A stretch of 32,000 bases of DNA from an uncultured Candidatus Nitrosopumilus sp. (GCA_905616385.1 CAJQSS010000004.1:8185-40184); one strand, 5' to 3'; counted from the stretch's first letter, positions 1,868 through 18,278 are shown. Numbers and translations: made by a program. Notes: a model not told the origin generated them from the letters alone.

Positions 1868-2926
1868 ATGGATAATTCTATACATATTGATTCTTCTCTT
1901 AGGACTGTAGAGTGGAAAAATAATAAAGTGATAATGATTGAACAAACAAAGCTTCCTAATGAATTAGTTTTTGTAGAATATGATGATTTTAATCAAGTTG
2001 CAAATGCTATCAAAACTTTGATAGTTAGGGGTGCTCCAGCAATTGGAGTATCTGGTGCTTTTGGATTAGGATTAGCTGCTTTACAAAGTAAAGCAACATC
2101 AAAAGAAGAATTACTATTTGATTTAGAAAATGCAAGAAAAATTCTTTTTGCAACTAGGCCAACTGCTGTAAATTTAGGTTGGGGATTAGAAAAAATTATG
2201 AACGTTGCAAAAACTGGAGAAACTGCTGAACAAATCAGAGAACTAGTAATTTCTACTGCTAAAAAAATGGCAGATGAAGATATTGAAATTAACAAAGCTA
2301 TGGGAAAGAATGGTTCTATTCTTTTTGATAATAATGATACAATAATGACTCATTGTAATGCAGGTGCTTTAGCTACTGTAGCATATGGAACTGCACTGGG
2401 TGTTATTAGAGCAACTAGAGAAAGTGGAAAAAATGTTAAAGTAATTGCAACTGAAACTAGACCAATTCAACAGGGTTCACGATTAACTGCATTTGAGTTA
2501 AAACATGATGGATTTGATGTTAGTTTAGTTCCTGACACTGCTGTAGGGTATTCAATGGCAAATGGATTAGTAAACAAAGTTATAGTAGGCGCTGATCGAA
2601 TTGTAAAAACTGGTCATGTTTTTAATAAAATTGGAACATATCAGGTGGCAACAATGGCAAAACAACATGGAATTCCATTTTATGTTGCAGCACCATTATC
2701 TACAATTGATATGGAAACTAAAGCCGAAGATGTAATTATTGAGATGCGAAAAGGAAGTGAAGTAACTGGTATTGGTGATAAAAAGACTGCACCTGATGGT
2801 ATTGGCGTGATTAATCCTGCATTTGATATGACTCCGCCAGAATTAATTTCTGGTATTATTACTGAAAAAGGCGTGGCTACAGCCCCTTATGAAAAATCTA
2901 TCCAAAAATTATTCCAAGCTAATTAA
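1868..2926 (+). CDS. mtnA: eIF-2B alpha/beta/delta-like isomerase, most likely S-methyl-5-thioribose-1-phosphate isomerase (ribose-1,5-bisphosphate isomerase not excluded)
   Basis: 352 aa. Family-typical blocks are VRGAPAIGV, RPTAVNL, THCNAG, VGADRI..G.V.NKIGTY and NPAFD.TP. The N-terminus (VEWKNNKVIMIEQTKLP) is typical of MtnA/aIF-2BI. Confidence 0.75.
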   Translation: MDNSIHIDSSLRTVEWKNNKVIMIEQTKLPNELVFVEYDDFNQVANAIKTLIVRGAPAIGVSGAFGLGLAALQSKATSKEELLFDLENARKILFATRPTAVNLGWGLEKIMNVAKTGETAEQIRELVISTAKKMADEDIEINKAMGKNGSILFDNNDTIMTHCNAGALATVAYGTALGVIRATRESGKNVKVIATETRPIQQGSRLTAFELKHDGFDVSLVPDTAVGYSMANGLVNKVIVGADRIVKTGHVFNKIGTYQVATMAKQHGIPFYVAAPLSTIDMETKAEDVIIEMRKGSEVTGIGDKKTAPDGIGVINPAFDMTPPELISGIITEKGVATAPYEKSIQKLFQAN

Positions 2927-2965
2927 TACAAAGTTTTTATTGTTTTTCAAACTGTAAATTAGAAT

Positions 2966-3607
2966 ATGAGTACAGTTTCTGCACAAGCAATTGAAGATTC
3001 ATTAAAACAGTGTATGGATCCTGAAGTTCCTCTCAACATTGTAGAAATGGGATTAATTTATGGAATTGATGTTAAAGAAAATAATGATGTCGATATTAAA
3101 ATGACAATGACTACACAAGGTTGTCCTTTACATGAAACTTTGATTGCAGATGCAACAAGATTTGCCAAAAAAGTTCCTGGAGTGAATAATGTCAAAATTG
3201 ACATTGTCTGGGAGCCTGCATGGTCCATGGATAAAATGACTGAAGAAGGAAAACTCAAAATTAAAGAAATGGGTGCTAATGGTTTGAATACTCCTGCACC
3301 AATAAATTATGAAACTGCGTTACCTCAAGGAGTTGGTAAGTTAGTTCAACAAGACGATGGTTCAATGGTTTTAGCTAATGAGCATGAACAAGGATTTATG
3401 GTAAATCAGGCAATTGTTGATTTTTGGAAATCTTGTAATGGTCAACGTAAGGTGACAGATCTTGTAGAGGTATTTGCACAACAAACAGGATTACAAAGAA
3501 ACCAGGTTGAAAAAGAAGTTATGCAATTACTTCAACAACTTCGTGATGGTGGATTAATTGCTATTGCAGGTCAACATGATACACCAAATGTTGAATTTAA
3601 AAAATAA
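2966..3607 (+). CDS. Two-domain protein: N-terminal DUF59/MIP18 (SufT/PaaD-like Fe-S assembly) domain fused to a C-terminal PqqD/RRE-like domain
   Basis: Residues about 10-95 (CMDPEVPLNIVEMGLIY...MTMTTQGCPL...) match the DUF59 pattern. Residues about 125-205 (FMVNQAIVDFWKSCNGQRKVTDLVEVFAQQTGL..VEKEVMQLLQQLRDGGLI) match the PqqD-family pattern: LN..A..iW..cdG..t..el, then fl..L...gli. Confidence 0.6.
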   Translation: MSTVSAQAIEDSLKQCMDPEVPLNIVEMGLIYGIDVKENNDVDIKMTMTTQGCPLHETLIADATRFAKKVPGVNNVKIDIVWEPAWSMDKMTEEGKLKIKEMGANGLNTPAPINYETALPQGVGKLVQQDDGSMVLANEHEQGFMVNQAIVDFWKSCNGQRKVTDLVEVFAQQTGLQRNQVEKEVMQLLQQLRDGGLIAIAGQHDTPNVEFKK

Positions 3608-3609
3608 TT

Positions 3610-4257
3610 TTAAAAAATATAATTAGAGTTTGCGCCATCAAAGTTTATTGTTACTCCTGAAAGATATTTTATATTATTTTCAATTATTGCTTTAACAAAA
3701 TTTCCAATTTCTTGAGGTTCTCCTAATCTTTTCATAGGTAATATTTTCTCAAATTCTTTAACGTTTTTAATTAATTCTTGAGTTCTGTCTGTATTGATAG
3801 GACCTGGTGCAATGTTAACACAGCTGATGTTTTTCTCAGCATATTTTTTACTTAACACTTTGAAAACTTCAGCAAATGCAGCACGGTATGCTGATGATAT
3901 GATCAACTTTGCACTTGGCTCTTTAATTACACTGGAGCTTATCAAAAAAATATATCCACCATCATTGATTTTGATATTTTGTAGTATAGTAACAAATCCT
4001 AGAAATAATTGATTATGATATCGATTCCAGTCTTCTTCTGTAATGGTTAAGAATGGTTTTGGTTCTGGACCTCCTGTGTTTAGAATTAGAACATCTGTTT
4101 GATTGTGTATTTCTAGAAATTTTTTTACACTAGTCAAGTCTGATGTATCAATATCATTTTTTGAAGCAGCAAAAACGTCAATTTTTATAGATTTTAATGA
4201 CTCTGAAATTGCTTTTCCTATTCCTCTTGAACCCCCAAGCACAATTGCATTAGTCAT
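3610..4257 (-). CDS. Short-chain dehydrogenase/reductase (SDR), short classical type
   Basis: 215 aa. Has the N-terminal Rossmann motif VLGGSRGIGKAI, a catalytic-region S..YRAAFAE-like segment (Y-x3-(K/A)-type), and PGPINTD downstream. Confidence 0.65.
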   Translation of the reverse strand: MTNAIVLGGSRGIGKAISESLKSIKIDVFAASKNDIDTSDLTSVKKFLEIHNQTDVLILNTGGPEPKPFLTITEEDWNRYHNQLFLGFVTILQNIKINDGGYIFLISSSVIKEPSAKLIISSAYRAAFAEVFKVLSKKYAEKNISCVNIAPGPINTDRTQELIKNVKEFEKILPMKRLGEPQEIGNFVKAIIENNIKYLSGVTINFDGANSNYIF

Positions 4258-4417
4258 ACCATTTTAGAAATTTTCTCATAATTAAATTCTTTAATTTTAT
4301 AATTCTAATGTATCGATATTATTTTGAATAATCAAATTTTTTTAAAATTTTAGGGAATTTTAGTTTTTAGATATGCATAACTAATATAAATATAGATTAA
4401 AAAGGAAAATTAAGAAT

Positions 4418-4624
4418 TTGAAATCATATACAATTATTCTAGTTTTATTATTTTCTACAGGTTATTTTATATCTGATGCATATGCTTACCTAGACGCTGG
4501 TACAGGCAGTATAATATTACAATCCTTAATTGGAGTTTTAGTTGGAGTTGCAATTACTTTGAAAATTTATTGGTTAAAAATCAAAGAAAAATTTTCAAAT
4601 ATTTCTAAAAAAAACGAAACCTAA
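4418..4624 (+). CDS. Small membrane protein (68 aa, two hydrophobic helices), first gene of the phosphonate-tailoring operon
   Basis: TTG start. One hydrophobic segment is ILVLLFSTGYFI. It is followed by a YLDAGTGSIILQSLIGVLVGVAI segment and a basic tail. The stop lies 9 nt before the next gene. No function can be assigned. Confidence 0.45.
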   Translation: MKSYTIILVLLFSTGYFISDAYAYLDAGTGSIILQSLIGVLVGVAITLKIYWLKIKEKFSNISKKNET

Positions 4625-4633
4625 TTATTCAAT

Positions 4634-5803
4634 ATGAAATTTCTTGATATCTCTTTAGGTTCTGAATTAAATGAACTTAAAAGATTTGAAAGTTTGAAAC
4701 AGGAAGAACGAAAGATAGTTTTTTATTCAGAAAATAAGAATTCGGTGTTCATCTTTGAATCTTTAATTAATGAATTAGTTAATGTACATAATTATGATAT
4801 TTGTTATGTAACTTCAAGTAGAGATGAACCACTCCTTAAAACTTCAAATAAAAAAATTAAGACTTTTAATATTGGAGAAGGTGTTGCAAGAACAAAATTT
4901 TTCTTAAATTTACAAGCAGATATTTTGATAATGACTATGCCAGATTTAGAAACATTTCATATTAAAAGATCAAAAATTTATCCCGTACATTATATTTACA
5001 TCTTTCATGCAATGGTAAGTACACATTTAGTATATCGTAAAAATGCATTTGATCATTTTGATTCAATTTTGTGTGTGGGAGCATATCAGATTGATGAAAT
5101 TAGAAGTACTGAAAAATTTTATAATTTAAAACCAAAAAAATTAATTCCTTGTGGTTATAGTCACTTAGATGATCTTATTAAAAAATATACAAAAAGAATT
5201 GATGATATTCCCAAAGATAAAAATCAAACTCAAATATTATTGGCACCATCATGGGGTAAAAATGGATTATTTGAAACAATAATTGAAGATCTAATAAAAA
5301 TACTGTTGGATTCTAAATACAAAGTTATCTTTCGACCTCACCCTATGACAATCAAATCTTCAAAAAAGAAACTATTATCAATTGAAAAAATATTTTCATC
5401 AAACCCAAATTTTAAGTTAGAATTAGATTTACCAAATTTTGATTCATTTTTATTTTCTGATGTAATGATTTCAGATTGGTCTGGTGTGGCATTAGAATTT
5501 GCTTTTGCTTTTGAAAAACCTGTTCTATATATTGATGTACCAAAAAAAATTCGTAATCCCGATTTTAAAGACATATCACAAACACCAATAGAAGTGAGTA
5601 TTAGAGAAAAAATTGGTAAAATTATTTCGCCATTAGAAATCAAGCATATTTCAACAGAAATTGAAATGCTAAAGCAAAAATCATCTGAAATTAAAAAAGA
5701 TATAAGAAACATAAGAGAAAAAGAAATTTTCAATATTGGAAATTCAGAAAAAAAGTCCGCCGAGTATATTATTGAATTGTTAAATCAATTAAAAAAAAAT
5801 TAA
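4634..5803 (+). CDS. CDP-glycerol/alditol-phosphate transferase-like protein (TagF/TarF family fold), candidate phosphonyl/phosphoryl transferase
   Basis: 389 aa. ILLAPSWGKNG resembles the TagF-family L(Y/L)APT(W/F)R block. VMISDWSGVALEFAFAFEKPVLYID resembles the family's (T/S)D(Y/W)SS..fdf....kP...y block. Call made by eye only. Confidence 0.5.
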   Translation: MKFLDISLGSELNELKRFESLKQEERKIVFYSENKNSVFIFESLINELVNVHNYDICYVTSSRDEPLLKTSNKKIKTFNIGEGVARTKFFLNLQADILIMTMPDLETFHIKRSKIYPVHYIYIFHAMVSTHLVYRKNAFDHFDSILCVGAYQIDEIRSTEKFYNLKPKKLIPCGYSHLDDLIKKYTKRIDDIPKDKNQTQILLAPSWGKNGLFETIIEDLIKILLDSKYKVIFRPHPMTIKSSKKKLLSIEKIFSSNPNFKLELDLPNFDSFLFSDVMISDWSGVALEFAFAFEKPVLYIDVPKKIRNPDFKDISQTPIEVSIREKIGKIISPLEIKHISTEIEMLKQKSSEIKKDIRNIREKEIFNIGNSEKKSAEYIIELLNQLKKN

Positions 5804-5867
5804 TCTATTGATAAGTGATTTTTAAATTTTATAAGAAAAAGTCATAAACAGTAGAAATTAGATTATT

Positions 5868-6626
5868 TTGTTGAGAGCAATTATTTTAGCAGCTGGAAAA
5901 GGAAGTAGATTAGAAGAATTAACAAAAAATATTTCAAAAGGCATGCTCAAATTATTTGGTAAAACATTGATCGAAAGACAAATAGAAATTTATCAAAAAT
6001 GTGGAATTGATGATATCACAATTGTAACTGGCTACAAAAGTGAAATGATAAATTTTTCAGGCATAAATTATGTAAAAAATCAAGATTATGCTACAACCAA
6101 CATGAATGAAAGTTTATTTTGTGCAAGTGAAAAATTATCAGATTCGGTAATTATTTCATATACTGATATAGTATTTGAGCAAAAAATGATTGAGCAAATG
6201 TTGCAGTTTTCAGGTGATATAGGAGTAGCTGTAAGTCTAAACTGGAAAAAAAATTACGATGGACGTACATTACACCCATTATCAGAAGCTGAAAATGTAT
6301 TGATTGAAAATGACAAAATAATTCAGATTAAAAAAAATATTTCAGAAGCATCATCAGATCAAAAAATTGGTGAATTTTTGGGAGTTATGAAATTATCTAA
6401 TGAAGGAGGAAAAATTCTATTACAGAAGTATTTAGAGTTAAAAGAAAATCATACGGAAACATTTCATATGGCTAAATCTTTCAAAGATGCATATATTACT
6501 GATATGTTACAAGAAATAATTGACTCTGGCTATGATGTTTCTCCTGTGGTAGTAGATGGGAATTGGTATGAAATTGATACTCCGCAGGATCTAGAAGAAG
6601 TAGAAAGATCTTCTATGTTTAATTAA
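5868..6626 (+). CDS. Sugar/phospho-alcohol nucleotidyltransferase (LicC/PntC-like cytidylyltransferase family)
   Basis: 252 aa. Has the N-terminal NTP-transferase signature AIILAAGKGSRL (G-x-G-(S/T)-R-L). The size and C-terminal W(Y)EIDTPQD block are typical of LicC-like enzymes. TTG start. The stop overlaps the stop of the convergent oxygenase gene by 4 nt. Confidence 0.7.
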   Translation: MLRAIILAAGKGSRLEELTKNISKGMLKLFGKTLIERQIEIYQKCGIDDITIVTGYKSEMINFSGINYVKNQDYATTNMNESLFCASEKLSDSVIISYTDIVFEQKMIEQMLQFSGDIGVAVSLNWKKNYDGRTLHPLSEAENVLIENDKIIQIKKNISEASSDQKIGEFLGVMKLSNEGGKILLQKYLELKENHTETFHMAKSFKDAYITDMLQEIIDSGYDVSPVVVDGNWYEIDTPQDLEEVERSSMFN

Positions 6627-7993
6627 TTATTTTTTGGATCAAACCACTGCAATGATTCATTTATTGCTCTTTTAACACTTCTTTTACCAACAAAGGATAA
6701 TTCTCTTTGTGAATCACCAGTAATCTTTCCACCTAGTCTTAATACCAAAAGTTTTCCAGATCCTCTAAAATTATGTTGTAAAAATGGTTTCAAGTATGCA
6801 GAATCTCCTGAATGAATAATTTCTTTAAATTGTTTATTATTATATGACCAGTTAAGGATTACATCTGTATTACCTATATTGTAGATATATTGATGTAAAC
6901 CTACTTCAAGATCTAATGATGAATCATCTTGAGATAACATATCAATTTCAAAAGCTTTTGAGTAGGGTAAGGTAGTTGACGATGCTAAATCATGGAATTT
7001 ATAATTTTTTGATTCTGGATAAAACCAATCTTTTCCTTCTTTATGACATTGTAAAATAACTTTATTTTCTATTTTTTCATTAGGACGTAAATCACGCGTA
7101 TTGATATTAAGTGACGTAGCTAAACTCTGAAGTTCAATTTCCGAAGGCATACTAACATTATTTTCAAAATCTTCAATTTTTCTTTCTGATACGTTACTTC
7201 TTTGAGAGAGCTCATTAATCGATATGCTTCCTATTTCACGATGGAATTTTAAAAGGGATGAAAATGTATGTTGTTTTGAAGAAAAGTCAAGAGCATATTC
7301 TTGACCTAGCTCTGAAGAAATTGCTGATAGTTCCTGTTGAACGTCACCAGTTAATTTATTTCCATAAGTTAATGCTAAAATCAGACCATTTTGTTTTGCG
7401 CCAGATCTTGTAGTAAAAGTATGAGGAGTGAAAGGCGTGATATACATAGAATCCCCAGTATTCATTACTGCAACTTGTTTTTTACCATCTGAATCAAGAT
7501 AATAGAAATTAACATCTCCAACGAAATAAGTAAACTGATGCATAAAGTGCCCTCTATTCCATTGAGCATTTGGATTCTTAGGATCATTATCATCAACATA
7601 ACATAATTCCATTATCCATTCAGGTCTAAAAGGAGCTAAACTGCTCATCACCGTATCTCTATATTCATAATATGGTTTACCTGCACGATCCATTATCCTA
7701 CTACTCTTTTCTGAATTTGTAGATGTCATGATTTTAACTCCAAAATTACAATCATCTCGAATTATGTAGAAATCACGTTCATTAATTGACCATATTTCTG
7801 CAGCACGAGTGACCATTTCAGGTGTTAATTTTCTCTCCCCTTTAATAATCAAAGATATCTCTGCAGTAGTTACATTCAATTCCTTTGCTGCATCCTCCGG
7901 TCTTCTTTTAAGATCATTTAAAATTCCTAAGAAATTGCTGCCAATACGTTTATTCTCATTTTTAATATTGAGAGTATTTTCTAAAGTTTCCAA
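6623..7993 (-). CDS. mpnS: Methylphosphonate synthase-type non-heme Fe(II) oxygenase (MpnS/HEPD family; tandem HTH-cupin/HTH-cupin architecture)
   Basis: 456 aa with an internal duplication. HTH-like segments occur at about 20-75 (PEDAAKELNVTTAEISLIIKGERKLT) and about 245-300 (SINELSQRSNVSERKIEDFENNVSMPS), each followed by a cupin barrel. The first cupin carries NRGHFMHQFTYF ... ITPFTPHTF, giving H149/Q153/H191. The gene sits immediately downstream of the Fe-ADH and opposite pepM/ppd. Confidence 0.8.
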   Translation of the reverse strand: METLENTLNIKNENKRIGSNFLGILNDLKRRPEDAAKELNVTTAEISLIIKGERKLTPEMVTRAAEIWSINERDFYIIRDDCNFGVKIMTSTNSEKSSRIMDRAGKPYYEYRDTVMSSLAPFRPEWIMELCYVDDNDPKNPNAQWNRGHFMHQFTYFVGDVNFYYLDSDGKKQVAVMNTGDSMYITPFTPHTFTTRSGAKQNGLILALTYGNKLTGDVQQELSAISSELGQEYALDFSSKQHTFSSLLKFHREIGSISINELSQRSNVSERKIEDFENNVSMPSEIELQSLATSLNINTRDLRPNEKIENKVILQCHKEGKDWFYPESKNYKFHDLASSTTLPYSKAFEIDMLSQDDSSLDLEVGLHQYIYNIGNTDVILNWSYNNKQFKEIIHSGDSAYLKPFLQHNFRGSGKLLVLRLGGKITGDSQRELSFVGKRSVKRAINESLQWFDPKNN

Positions 7994-8057
7994 TTAAGTT
8001 AATATGAAATTCATTTACTTAAATTGTTTTTGTTGATTTTCAATTAATACGTAATAC

Positions 8058-9005
8058 TTAATTCAATACATTGTTTGAATTAATTTTTTCAAGAAGTAAA
8101 ACTATGTCTTCATGTGAAACTAATTTAGGATTATTATCAAGATGTTTTTTATCAGTCAATATTAGATCAGCTGCATTATGAGAATTTGATTGTAATTTTA
8201 TAGATTCAAAATTTAGTTTTTTCACAATTTTAAGAAAACGTGAATAAAATTTTGAATCATTAAATTTATGAGCTACTGTTGTGGTAAAAGCTAAAGCATG
8301 ACCATGAGAAATACCTTCATTGGAAAAAACATATGATAAAGCATGTCCTAAAGTAGTGGAACAATTTCCAAAACCTAAACCTGAAAATAAAGAACCAAGA
8401 ACGATTTTTTCATTATCTTCATTTAATATTCCTGATTCTAAATAATCAAATGCTCTTTCACATAAGAATTTTGTATAAAAATTTCCAATTTTACTATCAA
8501 ACCCTTCACTACATTGAGCTAAAGCATCAATTGCAGAATTTTTAAAGACATTTTCTGGAGTATGAGAAATAAATTCTGAATCAACAATAGCAGTATTGGC
8601 AAAAAATTTATCATCATGAAAACTTTTCTTTTTTCCATTAATTTTTAATACTGCTATTCGTGTTACTTCACTACCACTTCCAAATGTAGTTGGTATCATA
8701 ATTTTAAATTTATTCATTTTTGCAGCACTAAATTTTGCTACATCAAGAGCACTTCCTCCACCTAAACCAATTATCGATGAAATTTTGGTGTTTGAAAATT
8801 CAGATAAAATTTTCTCGACCGTTTCAATCGAAGGATTATTTTCGACTTTATCAAAAAGAGAATAATTTTTTAATCTAAGATATTCGATCCATCCACGTTG
8901 TTTTGCTCCTTTAGATGTAATTAAAAGACAATTTTCAGGAAAATCATATTTTGATACAGAATGTTTTCCAAAAATAATTTTTGAAGGTTGTTTAATTATA
9001 TACAC
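8058..9005 (-). CDS. pdh: Iron-containing (group III) alcohol dehydrogenase; by context phosphonoacetaldehyde reductase producing 2-hydroxyethylphosphonate
   Basis: 315 aa. Has the GLGGGSALDVAKF dinucleotide/Fe-ADH signature and His-rich metal region LGHALSY...HGHALAF. It lies upstream of, and co-directional with, the MpnS-type gene and divergent from pepM. Confidence 0.75.
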   Translation of the reverse strand: MYIIKQPSKIIFGKHSVSKYDFPENCLLITSKGAKQRGWIEYLRLKNYSLFDKVENNPSIETVEKILSEFSNTKISSIIGLGGGSALDVAKFSAAKMNKFKIMIPTTFGSGSEVTRIAVLKINGKKKSFHDDKFFANTAIVDSEFISHTPENVFKNSAIDALAQCSEGFDSKIGNFYTKFLCERAFDYLESGILNEDNEKIVLGSLFSGLGFGNCSTTLGHALSYVFSNEGISHGHALAFTTTVAHKFNDSKFYSRFLKIVKKLNFESIKLQSNSHNAADLILTDKKHLDNNPKLVSHEDIVLLLEKINSNNVLN

Positions 9006-9067
9006 AAATATTGAACTAAAGTTAAAAATTAATAGTTAACTAGATGGGTATTCATGAATAACAGAAT
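9006..9067. promoter_or_regulatory. 62-bp divergent intergenic region, candidate bidirectional promoter for the pdh-mpnS and pepM-ppd operons
   Basis: This is the only non-coding DNA between the two divergent phosphonate operons. It contains an AT-rich TATA-like tract GTTAAAAATTAATAGTTAAC (9021-9040) with 5-bp inverted ends GTTAA/TTAAC, about 30-45 bp from both start codons. No transcript data are available. Confidence 0.3.
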
Positions 9068-9967
9068 ATGAAAACAAATGCAGAAATACTTAGAGAATTA
9101 CTTGACTCAAAACCTATTCTAAAGATTTGTGGTGCCTATGATGCAATGTCAGCCAAATTAGTTGAAAATGTGGGTTTTGATGCAGTATGGGCTGGAAGTT
9201 TTGCTATATCTGCAATTAATGCGGTTCCTGATGCAAGCATTTTAACTATGACAGAATTTTTTGATGCAGCTTCAAAGATGGTGAATGTTTGTAAAATTCC
9301 TGTTATTGCTGATTGTGACACAGGTTATGGTGGACCAAATAATGTAAGACATTTAGTCAAAAAATATGAAAGCGCAGGAATAGCGGCAATTAGTATAGAA
9401 GATAAAATTTTTCCTAAACAAAATAGTTTACTTGAAAATGGAACACATGCTCTTTTATCAGAAAAAGATTTTGTAGGAAAAATTATTGCTGCTAATGATG
9501 CAAAACAAAACAAAGAATTTATGATAATTGCAAGAGTTGAAGCATTGATAGCAGGTTTAGGAATGGATAACGCCATAAAACGAGCTAGAGCATATGAAAA
9601 AGCAGGTGCCGATGCAATATTAATTCACTCAAAAAAACATACTCCCGAAGAAATTTTTGAATTTGTTGATTCCTGGAATGGAAACTTACCAATTGTAGTA
9701 GTCCCTACCAATTATGGTACAGTAAAGATTGATGAATTAATTCAACATAAGATAAAAATGACTATTTATGCAAATCAAACTCTTAGAGCTGCTCACGCAG
9801 CTATCACCAGGACATTAAATGAAATGATAAAAGTTGAAAGTATGAGTGAAATAAAGGAAAAAATTTCAAGTATGGAAGATATTTTCCAATTACAAGAAAT
9901 GTATGATTTACAAACAAATGAAGCAGCATTAGAAGAAAAATACAAAAAATTAGGTTATGAGTCTTGA
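9068..9967 (+). CDS. pepM: Phosphoenolpyruvate phosphomutase (PEP mutase)
   Basis: 299 aa of the isocitrate lyase/PEP mutase superfamily (ADCDTGYGG). It carries the PepM-discriminating motif EDKxxxxxNS as EDKIFPKQNS, residues 111-120, nt 9398-9427. It is followed by phosphonopyruvate decarboxylase genes. Confidence 0.9.
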   Translation: MKTNAEILRELLDSKPILKICGAYDAMSAKLVENVGFDAVWAGSFAISAINAVPDASILTMTEFFDAASKMVNVCKIPVIADCDTGYGGPNNVRHLVKKYESAGIAAISIEDKIFPKQNSLLENGTHALLSEKDFVGKIIAANDAKQNKEFMIIARVEALIAGLGMDNAIKRARAYEKAGADAILIHSKKHTPEEIFEFVDSWNGNLPIVVVPTNYGTVKIDELIQHKIKMTIYANQTLRAAHAAITRTLNEMIKVESMSEIKEKISSMEDIFQLQEMYDLQTNEAALEEKYKKLGYES

Positions 9968-10449
9968 AAGAAAAAATTCAGAGAGATATTTTTGATTACT
10001 TTTCAAAAAATGGAATAGAGAATTTTATTGGTGTTCCAGATTCCACTATGAAATATTTTATAGAACAAGGTTTAGAACAAAAAAAGATTCTCATTACAAC
10101 CAAAGAAGAGGAAGCAATTGGAATAGGTGCAGGATTTTGTATATCAAAAAGCCCTACAATCATTTTTATGCAAAATGCAGGATTTGGAAATTCAATTAGT
10201 ACTATAACATCTCTCATTCAGCTTTATGAAATTCCTTTGATATTTCTAATAGGGTGGAGGGGATATAAAAAAAATGATGCGCCAGAACATTTAGGGTTTG
10301 GCAAAATTCAAAATCAGCTTTTGAAAATCTTGGATATTCCATTTAAGATTATGTCTGAAAATGAATGGAAATCAATATGTGATTGGTCATTACATAATTT
10401 GCATAAGAATAATTCTTGTGCACTAATAATTAAGAGGGAACATGAATAG
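9964..10449 (+). CDS. ppd: Phosphonopyruvate decarboxylase, alpha (pyrimidine-binding) subunit
   Basis: 161 aa. Has a TPP-enzyme N-terminal domain (FIGVPDS..., EEEAIGIGAG, MQNAGFGN), like the ComD/Ppd alpha half. The TTG start overlaps the pepM stop by 4 nt. Confidence 0.75.
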   Translation: MKEKIQRDIFDYFSKNGIENFIGVPDSTMKYFIEQGLEQKKILITTKEEEAIGIGAGFCISKSPTIIFMQNAGFGNSISTITSLIQLYEIPLIFLIGWRGYKKNDAPEHLGFGKIQNQLLKILDIPFKIMSENEWKSICDWSLHNLHKNNSCALIIKREHE

Positions 10450-11005
10450 AAAACAAGCCATTTCCACAATTGTTAAAGAAGTTGGAAACAATCCAATAAT
10501 TTCAGCTAATGGATTCATTAGTAGAGATTTGTATGAAACATGTGATAGAAACCAAAATTTTTACATGATTGGTTCAATGGGATTGGCATCTTCTATAGGT
10601 CTAGGAGTTGCACTAAAAAATCCAAAAATTAAGGTTTTTGTTTTTGATGGAGATGGAAACATATTGATGAATTTAGGATCATTAACAACAATTGGTAGTT
10701 TACAGCCAAAAAATCTAATTCATATCATTTTTGATAATAACAGTCATGAATCTACAGGAGGTCAACCTACACATTCTAACAAAATAAAATTATCGCGTAT
10801 TGGAAAATCTGTAAATTATAAAGTGTTCAACATAGTATCAAAAAAGGAATTAATATCTAATTTTAAAAAAATCATAAATCATAAAGGCCCTGTAATGATT
10901 GTTGTTAAAGTCAACAAAAGTAAGAAAGTTAGTAAGAGAGTTGAAATTGAACCAAAAAAAATTGTAGAAAGATTTACAAATTCATTAAAAATCCATTCAT
11001 CCTAA
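10442..11005 (+). CDS. ppd: Phosphonopyruvate decarboxylase, beta (diphosphate-binding) subunit
   Basis: 187 aa. Has the TPP-binding motif GDG-x26-NN (FDGDGNILMNLGSLTT...IIFDNNSHESTGGQ, G70-N100). The ATG overlaps the alpha-subunit stop by 8 nt. Confidence 0.8.
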   Translation: MNRKQAISTIVKEVGNNPIISANGFISRDLYETCDRNQNFYMIGSMGLASSIGLGVALKNPKIKVFVFDGDGNILMNLGSLTTIGSLQPKNLIHIIFDNNSHESTGGQPTHSNKIKLSRIGKSVNYKVFNIVSKKELISNFKKIINHKGPVMIVVKVNKSKKVSKRVEIEPKKIVERFTNSLKIHSS

Positions 11006-11132
11006 AATTTATTATAAATTGAAAAATCTATATATAAAAATAAAAATTGTGCCTATAATTCAGTTTTAGTTATTCATTTGAGATGATTTTCTGTTCCGAG
11101 TATTTATTATTGCTAATTATAAAATAAAAATT

Positions 11133-12710
11133 ATGAATATTTCCAAAACAAGTGTTTTTCATCCATTTTTGTTTGCTATTTTTCCAATAATTCATCTATA
11201 CTCAATTAATTTTATTGAAGTTCCTATGGATGATATAATTTTTCCAATATTTGTTTCAATTTTAGTTACTGGATCTTTATTATTTCTCTCACAAATAATT
11301 TTGAAAGATTGGACAAAATCATCTCTTATTGTTTCATTATTGTTAGTGTTGTCATTTTCTTATGGTCATATCTACCATTTGTTAAATGGAATGGCATTGG
11401 AAGATCTTGAAATTGTGAGACATAGATATCTTATGGTTGTATTTCTTGTTATATTCATCATAGGAACAATAGCCATTGTTAAAACACAAATTAAATTCAA
11501 TAATTTAAATAAAATAATTACTGCAATTGCAATTACTTTAATTCTAATTACAATGCCTAGTTTTGTATATGCTGGAATTTCTACATCAGAAATCAGTGAT
11601 GACATACAAGTACAAACAGTTGATGACATACAAGTACAAAATCCTAGAATAACATATGAATTAAAAAACATAGATAAATTGAATTCCACAGAAAAACCCG
11701 ATATCTATTACATTTTACTAGATGGATATGGGGGAACAGAGAGGATGAAACAAGATCTTAATTTTGATAATTACGAATTTCTTTCAGAATTAACGAATAG
11801 GGGATTTTTTGCTCCCGATTCGAGCTCAGGTAATTACCCCTCAACTAACTGGCAGATGACATCAATATTTAGCATGAATTATTTGCCATCTAAAGAAAAA
11901 GAACAATCAGACCCAGAGTATTATTCTTCGATTATTGAAATCTCTAAGGCAAATGAAGTTATGCGGAATTTTCATCATTTAAATTATGAAATTATTAATT
12001 TTCAACCCAAGGGATTTATCACACAACATTATTTGTTTAATGATCAAACTTTTTGTCAAAAAGAGCAATTAAAACAATCAAAATTTACTCAGATGTTACT
12101 TCGAACAACCATACTAAATTATTTGAATAATCAAATAGTAGTAAATGTATATAGAGAAAGTATTCTGTGTGGATTTTCAGAGATATCTAATTTGACGGAA
12201 AAAAATGATAAACCAATATTTGTGTATATGCACTTAGCAATACCCCATCCTCCATATGTATTTGGACCAAACGGAGAATATGTATTTGGAGGTAAGGTCC
12301 AAACTGAAGAAGGAAGTTTTGTTGATGAGGAAAAATACGTTGATTCAATAAAATTTGTAAATAAAAAAACTCTTGAAGTTATAGAAAATATTTTAAGAAA
12401 TAATGAAAACTCAATCATAATTATTCAATCAGATCATGGTTATGATTTTGGAATTAATTATGAAAATCCATCTGATATGAGTCTTAAGCAAAGATTTTCA
12501 ACTCTTAATGCAATATATTTTCCAGATCAAAATCAAGATATTCTATATGATGGAATTACACCGGTAAACACGTTTAGAATTGTTTTTAATGAATATTTTA
12601 ATGCCTCATATCCAATTTTAGATGATAGAATGTATTACCACCCCTACGGAGTAACTGGTATTTATACAGACGTAAAATTTCAAGATGTAACTGAAATAAT
12701 TTTAAATTAA
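11133..12710 (+). CDS. Polytopic membrane protein with C-terminal alkaline-phosphatase/sulfatase-superfamily domain (LtaS/EptA-like phosphotransferase architecture)
   Basis: 525 aa. The N-terminal 150 aa or so hold about five hydrophobic helices. The soluble domain has PDIYYILLDGYGG (metal-binding Asp), YPSTNWQMTSIFS (Ser/Thr nucleophile region) and IIIIQSDHGY (D-H metal pair). I saw no C/S-x-P-x-R formylglycine motif. Confidence 0.65.
   Translation: MNISKTSVFHPFLFAIFPIIHLYSINFIEVPMDDIIFPIFVSILVTGSLLFLSQIILKDWTKSSLIVSLLLVLSFSYGHIYHLLNGMALEDLEIVRHRYLMVVFLVIFIIGTIAIVKTQIKFNNLNKIITAIAITLILITMPSFVYAGISTSEISDDIQVQTVDDIQVQNPRITYELKNIDKLNSTEKPDIYYILLDGYGGTERMKQDLNFDNYEFLSELTNRGFFAPDSSSGNYPSTNWQMTSIFSMNYLPSKEKEQSDPEYYSSIIEISKANEVMRNFHHLNYEIINFQPKGFITQHYLFNDQTFCQKEQLKQSKFTQMLLRTTILNYLNNQIVVNVYRESILCGFSEISNLTEKNDKPIFVYMHLAIPHPPYVFGPNGEYVFGGKVQTEEGSFVDEEKYVDSIKFVNKKTLEVIENILRNNENSIIIIQSDHGYDFGINYENPSDMSLKQRFSTLNAIYFPDQNQDILYDGITPVNTFRIVFNEYFNASYPILDDRMYYHPYGVTGIYTDVKFQDVTEIILN
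11598..11640 (+). repeat. In-frame tandem duplication (period 24 nt, two copies sharing 19 identical nt) inside the sulfatase-like gene
   Basis: GATGACATACAAGTACAAA occurs at 11598-11616 and again at 11622-11640. It encodes DDIQVQ(TV)DDIQVQ(NP) in the linker between the membrane and catalytic domains. Confidence 0.9.
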
Positions 12711-12733
12711 AAATATTGTAATTTTTTATAAAA

Positions 12734-13207
12734 TTACATTTTTCCTTGTTGCCATGCTTGATTAAATTTTTTGATGGCTTCTTGATATGCTGTAATTGAT
12801 TCATCACCTGATGTTGTAAGAAATTTCTCCCATTGCCCATTAAATTTTTTTATTGATTCAATATTGGTTTCTTTGAAAATACTCTCAATCATTTTTGTTT
12901 GTTGTTTGATATATTCTGGACCAATTTCTTCCCAAGTATTTTCCCAACTTGTACTAACTTTTTTCAATAATTCTGAATCTGATTCTATTGCCTTTTGACA
13001 TGCATCATGATACGCCATTAATGTTTCATTTGTAGCCTTTTGCCATTGTGATAAGGATGCTTTCCATCCAGTTAATGCAGAATTATACTCTTTCCATGCT
13101 TTTTCAAATTCTGGTTTTTTTGTAGATGTTTTACTTTGTTTTTTTGGCTTAGAACTTGCTTTTTTTACTACTTTTTTTTTAATTTTAGATTTGTTTTTGA
13201 CAGCCAT
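12734..13207 (-). CDS. Hypothetical protein with a Lys-rich N-terminal tail and a Trp-rich helical body
   Basis: 157 aa. The N-terminus is KNKSKIKKKVVKKASSKPKKQSKTSTKK. Repeated W-containing helical segments follow (AWKEYNSALTGWKASLSQWQKA, SWENTWEEI, GQWEKF, QAWQQG). No recognisable catalytic motif. Confidence 0.5.
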   Translation of the reverse strand: MAVKNKSKIKKKVVKKASSKPKKQSKTSTKKPEFEKAWKEYNSALTGWKASLSQWQKATNETLMAYHDACQKAIESDSELLKKVSTSWENTWEEIGPEYIKQQTKMIESIFKETNIESIKKFNGQWEKFLTTSGDESITAYQEAIKKFNQAWQQGKM

Positions 13208-13525
13208 GTTTTTAGGTTTAATCTAATAGAAATTAAACTTTTTAATTATTTTGAGATTAAAAATTTCTTAATTTTTGTCAAAATTTTGATGCTTTAGAAA
13301 AGGTTGGAATGTGTGTTTCATCTTTATTTTTAAATAACTTGTAATGATTTTTACATAAATTCCTGGTTTCTTTAAAACTGATTTTTACAGTTTGGATAGC
13401 TTTTTCTTTACATTCTGAAATACTACATTGCAATATTGTAAATAATTGATATTTCCTAATAAAACTTTGAAATTATATAATTACCACTACTAACTTTTTT
13501 ATGATTGTAGTATATTGCAAAAATT

Positions 13526-13735
13526 ATGGATGATGATGAAAAAGGCAAAGAATTTTTAAAATTAATTGATGATCAAAATACTGTTCAATGGAATATTGTT
13601 GCAAAATTATCTTCTTTGGTTAAAGTAGAATGGAATTCTATCGAATTAAAAACTGAACTTGAAACTTTAGTTAAAGATCATTATAAAATTACTAAAGACC
13701 TTAACAGTTTAGATGATAATAATAGTATTTTATAA
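13526..13735 (+). CDS. Small acidic hypothetical protein (69 aa)
   Basis: ATG-initiated ORF in an otherwise empty region. Plausible helical composition and no motif. Its stop overlaps the ctaB stop convergently by 6 nt. Coding status is uncertain. Confidence 0.3.
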   Translation: MDDDEKGKEFLKLIDDQNTVQWNIVAKLSSLVKVEWNSIELKTELETLVKDHYKITKDLNSLDDNNSIL

Positions 13736-14659
13736 TCCAGAATCTACCATTAATGCAATAAATAAGACTGCCAAGTATGGACTAGAAAATTTAAACAATG
13801 TCCATGCAGCTGTTTCCATGGGTTTTATTGTAACCCAAACTGATAGTCCTAACATTAATGCACCTGATGCAATTGCAGTCCACAAATACACATCACCTAC
13901 CATGTTTTCACCGCTTTCAGTAGTTATGAAAAATGGTGCAATTGAAAATAATACCATTACAACAGTAGATAGTGCAATAGCTCTTGCTGATGTTTTTTCA
14001 GATTGTACTGCAGTTAACATTGGAACATTTACTTTGTTATAATCTTCTTTGAAATGTAATGTTAAAGCCCAAATATGCATTGGAATCCAAATAAACACTA
14101 ATCCTGCCATTGCTAATCCCATTGTCCATAAATCTGACATAGTTACTGCAACCCATCCAATCATAGGTGGTGCACCTCCACATAATCCTCCTAAAATAAT
14201 ATTAGTTCTAGAATTTCGTTTTAGTATATATGAATAAATAATAATATTGTTTACTAGTGCGAATGCAATGAAAATTGTTGCCCATATTCCTTGTTCCAAT
14301 GTTGTAGTAAATGAAATTGCAAAAGCCAACACTAATGATATTCCAGCTAATGCTAATCCAAAGTTTCTTGCTTTAACAGCAGGATAAATTCTCTTTGAAG
14401 GAAGGGGTCTATCTTTAGTTCTTTCCATAATTGCATCAATATCCCTATCATGATAATTTGTCAAAGTATTAGCTGCTGCAGAACCTGATGCTACTGAAAA
14501 TAACATCAAAGCCCATGTTTCTATAGAAATTGGAATATTGTAGATGTTTGATGCTGTTAATGCTGCTCCAAATGCCGTAAATACAAGTAAATACCAAATT
14601 TTTGGTTTTGTTAATTCATAATAAACTGCAACTCTAGAACTGGTTGTTTGTTTTTGCAA
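13730..14659 (-). CDS. ctaB: Protoheme IX farnesyltransferase (heme O synthase), UbiA family
   Basis: 309 aa with about 8-9 TM helices. Has the UbiA Asp-rich motif NYHDRDIDAIMERTKDRPLP and a second conserved block (W.MGLA..G..F.W..PH.WAL). Confidence 0.85.
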   Translation of the reverse strand: MQKQTTSSRVAVYYELTKPKIWYLLVFTAFGAALTASNIYNIPISIETWALMLFSVASGSAAANTLTNYHDRDIDAIMERTKDRPLPSKRIYPAVKARNFGLALAGISLVLAFAISFTTTLEQGIWATIFIAFALVNNIIIYSYILKRNSRTNIILGGLCGGAPPMIGWVAVTMSDLWTMGLAMAGLVFIWIPMHIWALTLHFKEDYNKVNVPMLTAVQSEKTSARAIALSTVVMVLFSIAPFFITTESGENMVGDVYLWTAIASGALMLGLSVWVTIKPMETAAWTLFKFSSPYLAVLFIALMVDSGL

Positions 14660-16359: not shown

Positions 16360-17442
16360 GTGAAAATAAGAACAAAATCCTCTATTCGGAGACATATTCC
16401 TGTTATTCATGGTGGAAAAATCCCTGTAAAAAATAGCGATCATAATATCATTGATTTTAGTTCTAATATCACTCCTCTTGGAATTCCTAATTCTGTAAAA
16501 TTAATAATTAAAAAAAATTTAGATAAAATTCAATTTTACCCTGACCCAAAATCTGAAAATGTAATTTCAAGTCTAGAAAAATATACGCATTTATCAAAAT
16601 CAAATATTATTGTTGGAAATGGTGCAATTGAAATTCTTTATAATTTTTGTTTTGCATTTTTATCTAAAACAACTAAAGTGCTAATTCACGTACCGACATT
16701 TGAAGAATACGAAGCTGCAGTAAAACTAAGTAATTGTAAAATTTCATATTTTAAATCCTTAAATTTGTCTACAAACATTGATTCATTTATTTCACAAATT
16801 CCAAAAAGTGGATGTATTTTTCTTTGTAATCCTAATAATCCTACAGGGGAATTATTATCAAAAAAAGAATTATTATCTATAATTATTGTAGCAAAAAAAT
16901 TAAAAACTATTGTATTTATTGATGAATGCTTTATTGAATTAGTTCCAAAATCTAATGAATCTGTTATATCTTATGTAAAAAAATATGATAATTTATTCAT
17001 TTTAAGATCTTTAACAAAATCATTTGGTTTACCTGGATTAAGAATTGGATATGCATGTGGTTCTAAAGAAATAATTAAAATTTTACAAAAAATTAAAATT
17101 CCTTGGAGTGTAAATTCTTTAGCACAAGATGCAGCAAATGCTGTGATTAAAAATACCTCTCATCTTAAAAAATCTAATATAATAATTAAAAAAGAATTAA
17201 AGTATTTAGAAGATAATATTTCTATTTTAAATGGATTTGAATGTATTTTTTCATCTACTAATTTTATTTTAATTAAAATAAAATATGATTCTACAAAGTT
17301 ACAAACAAAATTATTAAAAAATAAAATTTTAATCCGTGATTGTAAAAATTTTAGAGGTTTAGATAATCATTACATTCGAATTGCAGTAAAATCTCACAAA
17401 GATAATGTAAAATTAGTAAAAGCATTGGAGAAAATAAAATGA
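16360..17442 (+). CDS. cobD: L-threonine-O-3-phosphate decarboxylase (class I/II aminotransferase fold), cobalamin aminopropanol arm
   Basis: 360 aa. The N-terminal block VIHGGKI...IIDFSSNITPLGIP is typical of CobD. Also has FLCNPNNPTG and the PLP-lysine block LRSLTKSFGLPGLRIGY. GTG start. It heads an operon with cobQ/cbiB/cobS/cobY. Confidence 0.75.
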   Translation: MKIRTKSSIRRHIPVIHGGKIPVKNSDHNIIDFSSNITPLGIPNSVKLIIKKNLDKIQFYPDPKSENVISSLEKYTHLSKSNIIVGNGAIEILYNFCFAFLSKTTKVLIHVPTFEEYEAAVKLSNCKISYFKSLNLSTNIDSFISQIPKSGCIFLCNPNNPTGELLSKKELLSIIIVAKKLKTIVFIDECFIELVPKSNESVISYVKKYDNLFILRSLTKSFGLPGLRIGYACGSKEIIKILQKIKIPWSVNSLAQDAANAVIKNTSHLKKSNIIIKKELKYLEDNISILNGFECIFSSTNFILIKIKYDSTKLQTKLLKNKILIRDCKNFRGLDNHYIRIAVKSHKDNVKLVKALEKIK

Positions 17443-18278
17443 AATCATTAATGATTCAGGGAACTTCCTCTGGTGCTGGTAAAACAACCTTGGTTGCAGC
17501 CTTGTGTAGAATTTTTTCAGATAAGGGTTACAGTGTTGCTCCGTTTAAATCTCAAAATATGTCTAATTTTGCTTATATTACGCCTGATTTTGAAATTTCT
17601 CGTGCTCAAGCAATTCAAGCTTTTGGTGCACGTTGTAATATTACGCCTGATTTGAATCCTATTTTATTAAAACCAGTTGGAAATTATTCTAGTATTGTAT
17701 ATTTGAACGGTAAGCGTTTCAAAAAAATGCATGCTCAAGAATATTATGAAAAATTTGTTAATATTGAAGGTATGAAAATAGCTACAAAATCACTGAAGAC
17801 ATTACAGAAAAATTTTGATCTGGTAATTATGGAGGGTGCAGGTTCTCCTGCAGAAATTAATTTACAAAAATATGATATTGCAAATATGAAAATTGCTAAA
17901 AAAGCAAATGCAGATGTATTATTGGTAACTGATATTGATAAAGGAGGATCTTTTGCAAGTTTAGTTGGAACCATGAATTTAATTGATAAAAAATATCAAA
18001 AACTTGTCAAGGGGTTTATTTTTAATAAATTTCGTGGTGATATTGATGTATTAAAACCTGGATTTAAAAAATTAAAAAATATTACAAAAATTCCTACTTT
18101 TGGAACTATTCCATTAATATCATTAAATTTACCTGAGGAGGATTCTCTTAATGTAAAACCTAAACATATTACTTGGAGTAAAAAAAATATTTCAAAAATT
18201 GATGATGAATTAAATAAATTATCAAAAATTGTTAAATCAAATATTGATATTAATTCAATTGAGAAAATGTTACAATGA
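17439..18278 (+). CDS. cobQ: Cobyric acid synthase-like ATPase domain (CobQ/CbiP N-terminal half only; no glutamine amidotransferase domain)
   Basis: 279 aa. CobQ-typical blocks: IQGTSSGAGKTTLVAALCRIF..GY.VAPFKSQNMSN, RAQAIQA, NPILLKP, EGAGSPAEINL, DIDKGGSFASLVGT, FNKFRGD and LPEEDS. The ORF ends about 40 aa after the EDS block, where full-length CobQ continues into a roughly 200-aa GATase domain. Confidence 0.7.
   Translation: MKSLMIQGTSSGAGKTTLVAALCRIFSDKGYSVAPFKSQNMSNFAYITPDFEISRAQAIQAFGARCNITPDLNPILLKPVGNYSSIVYLNGKRFKKMHAQEYYEKFVNIEGMKIATKSLKTLQKNFDLVIMEGAGSPAEINLQKYDIANMKIAKKANADVLLVTDIDKGGSFASLVGTMNLIDKKYQKLVKGFIFNKFRGDIDVLKPGFKKLKNITKIPTFGTIPLISLNLPEEDSLNVKPKHITWSKKNISKIDDELNKLSKIVKSNIDINSIEKMLQ

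Follow-up and report, generated by a model that had tools for sequence, protein, structure and literature searches.

In a 32,000-nucleotide stretch of DNA from an uncultured Candidatus Nitrosopumilus sp., a marine group I thaumarchaeon (the whole stretch is referred to here as the window), we identified a candidate attachment arm of a methylphosphonate cluster. It would comprise three genes at 4418-6626, encoding a small membrane protein, a TagF-like transferase and a LicC/PntC-like nucleotidyltransferase, together with a membrane 'sulfatase'-family protein encoded at 11133-12710. We put the chances of this reading, with the activation and transfer steps set out below, at about even. The three genes at 4418-6626 were found to be genuine rather than chance open reading frames (ORFs): they recur in identical order, at 97-100% identity, in four independent marine metagenome contigs (L081-L083 and L088; for the cluster as a whole, L080-L083), and homologues of all three recur side by side across archaeal and bacterial phyla.

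By homology to characterised enzymes, phosphoenolpyruvate mutase (PepM), phosphonopyruvate decarboxylase (Ppd) and an alcohol dehydrogenase (ADH) of the cluster would make 2-hydroxyethylphosphonate (HEP), and methylphosphonate synthase (MpnS) would then yield methylphosphonate. The nucleotidyltransferase would join methylphosphonate and CTP to give CMP-methylphosphonate. The TagF-like enzyme, held at the membrane by the 68-amino acid (aa) protein as its anchor, would move the methylphosphonyl group from CMP to an acceptor hydroxyl, with release of CMP. The acceptor would be membrane-bound; a lipid-linked glycan belonging to the surrounding glycan island is probable. The outside-facing sulfatase-family protein may carry out a second transfer from a lipid-bound intermediate or serve a different acceptor. 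Elsewhere, the same transferase subfamily would serve HEP and probably the near-isosteric phosphoramidate.

The three genes at 4418-6626

The 389-aa protein was called TagF-like in an initial annotation of this DNA, and the assignment held in a Pfam profile search, in a family-profile search of PDB and in structure comparison. The protein matched PF04464 (Glyphos_transf) over residues 24-299 (E 1.5e-11, 44.3 bits against a cut-off of 22.1) and has no predicted membrane helices. A single-sequence phmmer search of PDB gave no match; a 37-sequence family profile reached Staphylococcus aureus TarL (8VA1, E 1e-5). In the profile alignment, RPH236P corresponds to MHPF of TarL and SD281WS283G to SDYSS. 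Residues H125, H236, D281 and S283 are among those invariant in 52 TagF-like sequences, and we take H236 to be the equivalent of TagF H584, reportedly described in Lovering 2010.

An AlphaFold model made with the 52-sequence alignment (predicted local distance difference test, pLDDT, 91.9; predicted template modelling score, pTM, 0.89) was compared with solved structures using Foldseek. The top matches were TagF with CDP-glycerol (3L7K and 3L7L, E 9e-13 and 5e-12, TM score 0.57-0.61); a TagF-like capsule polymerase (8QOY), TarL (8VA1) and then generic GT-B enzymes followed. As modelled, the protein has a two-Rossmann-domain GT-B-type fold closest to TagF/TarL. The invariant H125 lies in a loop just after the β-strand 119-123 of the model, the kind of position that would be expected for the N-domain catalytic histidine. 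Pfam and NCBIfam scans found no TagD/TarI/TarJ-type genes for CDP-alditol supply in the window cluster. The only cytidylyltransferase of the cluster belongs to PF12804, with a weak match to IspD (E 0.003). The TagF-like subfamily contains 750 clusters at 50% identity (E<1e-30). We propose that its member in the window is a CMP-phosphonate:acceptor phosphonyl transferase.

The nucleotidyltransferase (MobA-like NTP transferase) matched PF12804 (E 5.3e-17) and carries the signature LAAGKGSR14L...K24 (G-x-G-x-R...K), read directly from the sequence. Its best solved relatives were LicC (1JYK, E 1e-15) and Treponema PntC (6PD1, E 4.9e-10). PntC enzymes make CMP-phosphonates, and the roles of Arg15 and Lys25 in PntC have been described (Rice 2019). 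The best full-length NCBIfam match was the archaeal GlmU N-domain, far under its cut-off. The gene abuts mpnS in the window, in 14 of the 14 loci with an mpnS-like gene in the genome scan described below, and in all thaumarchaeal loci of the window type. We propose the product as a CTP:methylphosphonate cytidylyltransferase.

The small ORF has TTG as its sole start, by direct reading. On the basis of hydropathy, the 68-aa product has a signal-peptide-like N-terminus, a single strongly hydrophobic helix at residues 32-50 and, at the C-terminus, a basic tail. An almost invariant family motif, A-x-A-Y-[LI]-D-[PA]-G-[TS]-G-S, lies between the signal-like segment and the helix, with A23, Y24 and D26 invariant in our alignment (A3). 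Profile searches of Pfam and NCBIfam gave no family match for this protein, and its relatives (about 65-95 aa, more than 6000 members at E<=1e-3) are all annotated as hypothetical. In three proteins (P0132, P0168, P0395) the small protein forms an N-terminal extension of the TagF-like domain, which would place its C-terminus on the cytoplasmic side. We therefore propose that it is a membrane anchor or subunit of the TagF-like transferase; the initial annotation had suggested an accessory subunit, and the fusions lend weight to that view. We also considered a YidC fragment and an archaeosortase sorting signal; both were rejected, as there was no profile match and the conserved motif of its own marks a separate family.

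Gene neighbourhoods across species

A genome scan with a 12-sequence TagF-like alignment, taking one genome per species, gave 79 loci that span Thaumarchaeota, Woesearchaeota and at least a dozen bacterial phyla. Their 10-kilobase (kb) flanks were searched with the window proteins and all neighbouring ORFs were clustered. A nucleotidyltransferase homologue was found near the TagF-like gene in 55 of the 79 loci, usually abutting it, and a small-protein homologue in 37, mostly directly adjacent. Membrane sulfatase-family homologues were present in at least 25 (about 25-35) and a separate YidC paralogue in 13. We found pepM at 23 loci, 14 of which also had an mpnS-like gene. Only about 5% of bacterial genomes contain phosphonate genes (PMC8942020). 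When compared to this frequency, pepM linkage of 29% within 10 kb represents a very strong association.

A different gene set, consisting of a Cj1418-like kinase and/or a Cj1417-like amidohydrolase, was found at 27 of the 79 loci. The kinase of this set, a large PEP-utilising/ATP-grasp protein with a fused nucleotidyltransferase domain, matched NCBIfam PRK05849 (857 bits against a cut-off of 501), a model named only 'hypothetical protein' which we take to be Cj1418. For the class-I amidohydrolase the best family was NF045546 (γ-glutamyl-CDP-amidate hydrolase, Cj1417; E 1e-37, 130 bits against a cut-off of 250). These phosphoramidate-type loci often add methyltransferases and an Fmt-like protein, and occasionally an APS-kinase-like gene. 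No locus (0/79) combined pepM with Cj1416-1418-like genes. This mutual exclusion suggests that the two sets are alternative sources of head groups for a single transfer module. In Campylobacter jejuni, cytidine diphosphoramidate is a documented intermediate (PMC11800397), and we infer that it is near-isosteric with CMP-methylphosphonate, with NH2 instead of CH3 on the terminal phosphorus.

The specific link of the TagF-like/nucleotidyltransferase pair to pepM and mpnS, expected in the initial annotation, was only partly borne out: besides the 23 pepM loci there were 27 of the phosphoramidate type and 29 with neither supply pathway nearby. Occurrence beyond pepM/mpnS broadens the transfer-module reading and does not refute it. 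In neighbour-joining trees, which carry no support values and are indicative only, mpnS-adjacent, phosphoramidate-context, PepM-fused and kinase-fused nucleotidyltransferases formed separate groups, with the window enzyme among the mpnS-adjacent ones, and the TagF-like proteins of phosphonate and phosphoramidate contexts were interleaved. Such a pattern would be expected if the nucleotidyltransferase recognises the head group and the TagF-like transferase mainly the CMP moiety and the acceptor. Near relatives of the window TagF-like gene were found in glycan-biosynthesis islands with NeuB, a DegT-type aminotransferase, GT2 and a carbamoyltransferase (L161), a setting that favours a glycan acceptor. 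At another locus (L160 9100-18600), a thaumarchaeal TagF-like gene (66% identical) sits beside several transposase genes and a cytidylyltransferase/PepM that is split; this copy of the cluster is apparently decaying or being rearranged.

Several TagF-like proteins are fused to other domains. Fusions with YidC/60KD_IMP (P0217, P0234, P0236), YidC plus choline kinase (P0268) and Sulfatase plus YidC (P0253) were found, as were single cases with an ABC-transporter ATPase (P0179) and an Fmt-like domain (P0182). The YidC/Oxa1 (60KD_IMP) paralogue is also seen as a separate gene beside the TagF-like one, at L015, L024, L032, L033, L036, L046, L047, L068, L069 and L076. It may act as an anchor, as an insertase for partner proteins or as a lipid scramblase. 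Among stand-alone TagF-like proteins, some bear the Joint Genome Institute name 'YidC/Oxa1 family membrane protein insertase', which was possibly transferred from the fusions.

Bacterial clusters of the phosphoramidate type share an order: sulfatase-family gene, Cj1418-like kinase-nucleotidyltransferase fusion, Cj1417-like hydrolase, LicC-like nucleotidyltransferase, TagF-like gene, small protein, YidC paralogue and Fmt-like gene, sometimes with methyltransferases. This cluster was seen in Pseudomonas spp. (L015, L016, L030, L032, L033, L046 and L047, at about 5000-14500) and elsewhere, including L001, L009, L011, L012, L024, L035, L044, L052 and L059. These loci suggest phosphoramidate-type surface decoration well outside Campylobacter. 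Reviews treat the glutamine kinase and O-methyl phosphoramidate as Campylobacter-specific, a 2024 preprint places such phosphoramidate-type genes on Borg elements beside a PepM fusion, and in the literature the phosphoramidate transfer step is still biochemically uncharacterised. Phosphoramidate-type loci have one fused and one free-standing PF12804 domain. Likewise, mpnS clusters from Chloroflexota, Myxococcota and Acidobacteriota (L018, L019, L020, L031, L040, L049, L072, L074) have two, one fused to PepM and one free-standing beside mpnS.

Thaumarchaeal mpnS loci and the sulfatase-family protein

The reverse test, a metagenome scan with an MpnS alignment, gave 80 loci, all of them thaumarchaeal with at least 61% identity; about 55 were long enough to classify. 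About 19 had the layout of the window (PepM< ADH> MpnS> <nucleotidyltransferase <TagF-like <small, 54-100% identity). About 31 had a second layout, in which mpnS lies between two soluble sulfatase-family proteins; a PF12804 nucleotidyltransferase comes next, at a greater distance, and then Ppd, PepM and ADH. A few loci had mpnS and a nucleotidyltransferase without TagF-like or soluble sulfatase-family genes. Both layouts adjoin the same MtnA-like and iron-sulphur (FeS)/PqqD-like genes (L108 5000-16200 compared to 1868-12710 of the window), and so mark a variable island at a fixed chromosomal site; the locus looks like a variable surface-modification island. We take the soluble-sulfatase layout of the L108 type to be the arrangement of Nitrosopumilus maritimus. 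It fits the published description of that neighbourhood as 'sulfatases and a nucleotidyl transferase' (Metcalf 2012, cited by PMC9381506 and PMC8942020).

The enzymes of phosphonate synthesis were identified by profile and by residue. PepM matched PF13714 (E 4e-60) and TIGR02320 (E 1.5e-91, 306 bits, just under the curated cut-off of 319.55). The Ppd subunits matched TIGR03297 (E 1e-30 and 2e-54), each spanning half of the single-chain profile and under the curated cut-off. The alcohol dehydrogenase matched the Pfam Fe-ADH profile (E 3e-28) and NCBIfam Phn_Fe-ADH (E 1.5e-25), the latter under the curated cut-off of the model. Copies of the window mpnS with 99-100% identity were found in marine metagenomes. 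In the MpnS alignment (A4), H149, Q153 and H191 are invariant, and the window MpnS has F163 and I185. Allowing for an offset of +1, we take this His/Gln/His triad and Phe/Ile pair to be the MpnS signature, reportedly described by Born et al. 2017. A homologue from Marine Group I thaumarchaeote F20 (L003:17046-18395, minus strand; 58% identical to that of the window) has Tyr/Gly at the positions of Phe163 and Ile185. The two pairs presumably separate MpnS from HEPD-type enzymes, which make hydroxymethylphosphonate, and on these residues some thaumarchaea may make a different phosphonate.

The transferred group could instead be HEP, delivered from CMP-HEP and possibly polymerised through its free hydroxyl, although we find this quite improbable. 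In 9 of the 23 phosphonate-context loci, PepM, Ppd and ADH genes lie beside the TagF-like gene without mpnS; several have a Fom1-like cytidylyltransferase-PepM fusion, and Fom1 makes CMP-HEP (Rice 2019). A Nitrosopelagicus single amplified genome (L013) also has an mpnS-less layout. Against HEP, the nucleotidyltransferase abuts the mpnS-like gene in the window and at 14/14 loci. We further count against it that the window MpnS keeps the residues presumed diagnostic of methylphosphonate synthesis. Finally, methylphosphonate esters are present in cells of N. maritimus (Metcalf 2012, cited by later papers). At L058, L077, L079, L041, L045 and L051, the Fom1-like fusion, Ppd and ADH adjoin the TagF-like gene without mpnS. 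The product of those loci would be a HEP conjugate, which a TagF-type enzyme could in principle polymerise.

The membrane 'sulfatase', which the initial annotation had left out, is an equally strong transferase candidate. Hydropathy predicts five or six N-terminal helices in this 525-aa protein, followed by a C-terminal alkaline-phosphatase-superfamily domain on the outside. It matched PF00884 (E 1.7e-10), but the formylglycine motif C/S-x-P-x-R is absent from the window protein, in which the corresponding segment reads N-Y-P-S-T-N, and from 21 relatives; the protein is therefore not a sulfatase. Alkaline-phosphatase-superfamily positions are conserved (D197, N-Y-P-S-T238, H367, P-H372 and Q-S-D-H-G436), T238 being kept in 60-85% of relatives. 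No solved relative was found by sequence, LtaS and EptA included. We propose an extracytoplasmic phosphotransferase of LtaS/EptA architecture, which would be an alternative or second methylphosphonate transferase.

If this protein were the real methylphosphonate transferase, it would work through a covalent Thr/Ser-phosphonyl intermediate formed from CMP-methylphosphonate or a lipid donor, and the TagF-like enzyme with its anchor would have another task, for example building or priming the acceptor polymer. Sulfatase-family genes accompany mpnS in both thaumarchaeal cluster types and the TagF-like gene in one only, and Metcalf 2012, as cited by a later paper, pointed to sulfatases and a nucleotidyltransferase. 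The lack of the formylglycine motif, the retained metal and nucleophile positions and the LtaS/EptA-like layout fit this role as well. Across bacteria, however, the nucleotidyltransferase has the TagF-like gene as its constant partner (55/79), and genes of the sulfatase family are found near it less often (about 25-35/79). The P0253 fusion of Sulfatase and TagF-like domains suggests cooperation, not substitution, and TagF chemistry directly suits a CMP-linked donor. We consider this alternative unlikely.

A wider possibility, which we put forward tentatively and with more doubt than confidence, is that the LicC-like activator, TagF-like protein, small protein and membrane sulfatase-family protein (with a YidC paralogue in bacteria) form a previously unrecognised multi-phylum relay for very small phosphorus head groups. 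At the cytoplasmic face, the TagF-like enzyme would take P-CH3, P-NH2 or hydroxyethyl-P from a CMP-linked donor and load it onto a lipid carrier (e.g. polyprenyl phosphate). The small protein or a YidC-like protein would help the charged carrier across the membrane, and the outside 'sulfatase' domain would pass the group to S-layer glycans or exopolysaccharide.

Several results weigh against the activation and transfer scheme proposed at the outset. The N-domain profile of the TagF-like family gave no match in PDB, so the counterpart of TagF H444/TarL H300 could not be aligned. Archaeal sugar-1-phosphate enzymes of the ST0452 type are nearly as similar to the nucleotidyltransferase as LicC is (E 2.7e-11 and 3.8e-10), and its substrate is therefore not fixed by sequence alone. 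The initial placement of this protein in the phosphocholine/aminoethylphosphonate class was thus supported by PF12804 and by the LicC/PntC relatives, and blurred by the sugar-1-phosphate enzymes. The trees lack support values, as said above. Among the 29 loci without either supply pathway, ten had full 10-kb flanks. About 31 of the approximately 55 thaumarchaeal mpnS loci had no TagF-like gene within 10 kb, which means that the TagF-like enzyme cannot be the universal methylphosphonate transferase or the sole way to the esters; in these archaea mpnS is more universally accompanied by alkaline-phosphatase-superfamily proteins.

Some of the same results bear on the last alternative, that the TagF-like and nucleotidyltransferase pair is a conventional teichoic-acid-like or phosphocholine module with a CDP-alditol or CDP-choline donor, merely co-located in a surface-glycan island. 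PF04464 is defined by CDP-glycerol enzymes, one fusion includes a choline kinase (P0268), and 29 of the 79 loci lack phosphonate or phosphoramidate genes nearby. The Pfam and NCBIfam scans nevertheless found no alditol-phosphate or choline supply genes in the window cluster. The overlapping stop codons, the constant adjacency of nucleotidyltransferase and MpnS (14/14), the context-specific clades and the 29% pepM linkage are hard to credit to chance, and we regard this alternative as very improbable.

Locus setting, known systems and significance

The compact phosphonate cluster (4418-12710; Table 1) is set between housekeeping genes. As the initial annotation had described, three co-directional plus-strand ORFs converge on mpnS, and the ORFs and peptide motifs are exactly as it quoted them. 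The DNA at 6615-6629 reads atg ttt aat taa tta, which places the nucleotidyltransferase stop (TAA) at 6624-6626 on the plus strand and that of mpnS (TAA) at 6623-6625 on the minus strand, so that the overlap is 2 nt for the stops and 4 nt for the genes. The intergenic gaps are 9 nt between the small ORF and the TagF-like gene and 64 nt between the latter and the nucleotidyltransferase gene.

Table 1. Positions of the phosphonate cluster genes in the window
Feature	Position	Strand	Remarks
Small membrane protein	4418-4624	+	68 aa, contains YLDAGTGSIILQ
TagF-like transferase	4634-5803	+	389 aa, contains LLAPSWG and SDWSG...FAFEKPVLYID
Nucleotidyltransferase	5868-6626	+	252 aa, N-terminus MLRAIILAAGKGSRL
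mpnS, methylphosphonate synthase	6623-7993	-	Convergent with nucleotidyltransferase, stop codons overlapping
Fe-alcohol dehydrogenase (phosphonoacetaldehyde reductase, makes 2-hydroxyethylphosphonate)	8058-9005	-	Fe-ADH Pfam profile
pepM, phosphoenolpyruvate mutase	9068-9967	+	PF13714, TIGR02320
Phosphonopyruvate decarboxylase (ppd alpha + beta), two subunits	9964-10449 and 10442-11005	+	TIGR03297
Membrane 'sulfatase'	11133-12710	+	525 aa, PF00884

On one side the cluster is flanked by PGI-like, MtnA/eIF-2B-like, FeS-assembly/PqqD and short-chain dehydrogenase/reductase (SDR) genes, and on the other by UbiA, aspartate-semialdehyde dehydrogenase and cobalamin genes. The nearest relatives of the window were marine group I thaumarchaeal genomes and marine metagenome contigs. 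The window is AT-rich (G+C about 29%), and its lowest G+C is found at 4001-6000, in the small ORF/TagF-like region (about 0.25, compared to about 0.29-0.33 elsewhere), which is compatible with a flexible, possibly horizontally acquired segment. A search of a phage database with the 2.3-kb region gave no match. Viral contigs held a single weak relative, and a viral feature was rejected on that account. Directly downstream of the cluster lies a gene for a 157-aa lysine-rich protein with no Pfam match (12734-13207, minus strand). The cobalamin-related genes at 16360-19964 (class I/II aminotransferase, CobQ/CbiA-like, CobD/CbiB and CobS) are unconnected to the phosphonate finding.

TagF, TarL and TagB (PF04464; 3L7K, 8VA1) share with the window protein the Pfam family, the GT-B-type fold, the C-domain HP histidine and the SD[WY]S nucleotide motif. 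The proposed chemistry would be identical: an acceptor hydroxyl attacks the β-phosphorus of a CMP-O-P(O)(O-)-R donor and CMP leaves. In the window, however, R would be CH3 (or NH2 or CH2CH2OH), and with methylphosphonate no polymer would be possible. The window protein is only about 15-18% identical to these enzymes and its N-domain is not alignable by sequence. Its cluster is without CDP-glycerol or CDP-ribitol supply genes, its partner is of the LicC-type PF12804 rather than the TagD/TarI type, and membrane attachment would be by the separate 68-aa protein or a YidC-like domain, not by an intrinsic amphipathic domain. The LicC/PntC and LicD-type systems (Rice et al. 2019) have a nucleotidyltransferase of the same PF12804 family, CMP-conjugate activation followed by surface-glycan transfer, and pepM clustering. 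Here, in contrast, the proposed substrate is methylphosphonate, which has neither an amino nor a choline group, a TagF-like partner takes the place of a LicD-like one, and the host is archaeal.

The N. maritimus cluster, as described in citing papers, has the same core (PepM, Ppd, ADH, MpnS and the PF12804 nucleotidyltransferase), chromosomal neighbourhood and proposed product. If its layout is of the L108 type, as we assume, its soluble sulfatase pair is replaced in the window by the small, TagF-like and membrane sulfatase-family proteins. The O-methyl phosphoramidate pathway of C. jejuni (Cj1415-Cj1418, with transferases Cj1421/Cj1422) resembles the 27 TagF-like loci with a Cj1418-like kinase, a Cj1417-like hydrolase and a LicC-like cytidylyltransferase; the window has no phosphoramidate genes, and the C. 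jejuni donor has an extra 3'-phosphate. Three-component systems of post-export decoration (GtrABC, CsbB/GtcA/YfhO) and head-group transferases (EptA/LtaS/OpgB) are similar in that an enzyme for charging in the cytoplasm is encoded together with small membrane proteins and a polytopic protein whose catalytic domain faces outside; the sulfatase-family protein has the layout of EptA/LtaS. This resemblance is one of architecture only: a lipid carrier intermediate is not known, and no homology to flippases was found.

The initial annotation had considered the sequence of activation and transfer the part most likely to be new biology. This idea is already published: nucleotide activation in phosphonate clusters, leading to a methylphosphonate ester on a surface polymer, was proposed generally (Rice 2019, Lockwood 2022), and methylphosphonate-decorated exopolysaccharide was proposed in Nitrosopumilus (Metcalf 2012, via the citing papers PMC9381506 and PMC8942020). 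Neither the TagF-like candidate nor the small protein appears in those papers. Our literature search found no TagF-family phosphonyl transferase, small anchor or four-gene module common to phosphonate and phosphoramidate-type clusters. The statement in the initial annotation that no methylphosphonate-installing enzyme has been characterised agrees with this, in that we found no paper on a TagF-type enzyme putting phosphonate on a macromolecule. We know of no identified enzymes that attach phosphonate to macromolecules in the literature searched.

We conclude that the attachment genes are credible candidate machinery for linking phosphonate to cell-surface molecules, well supported by their genomic context. 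Aerobic methane production in the ocean is accepted to draw on methylphosphonate esters in marine high-molecular-weight organic matter, and the locus offers clonable candidates: the nucleotidyltransferase, the TagF-like transferase with its anchor, and the non-sulfatase 'sulfatase'. Pseudomonas brenneri DSM 15294 and P. japonica DSM 22348 are culturable bacterial models of the sister system. Should the TagF-like subfamily act on P-CH3 as well as P-NH2, two rare chemistries, the decoration of glycans with phosphonate and with phosphoramidate, would be tied to one machinery, and the annotation of TagF-family genes near such clusters would change. The tentative relay, if true, would name the enzymes that give marine dissolved organic matter its methylphosphonate and HEP esters, and would extend phosphoramidate decoration far beyond Campylobacter.

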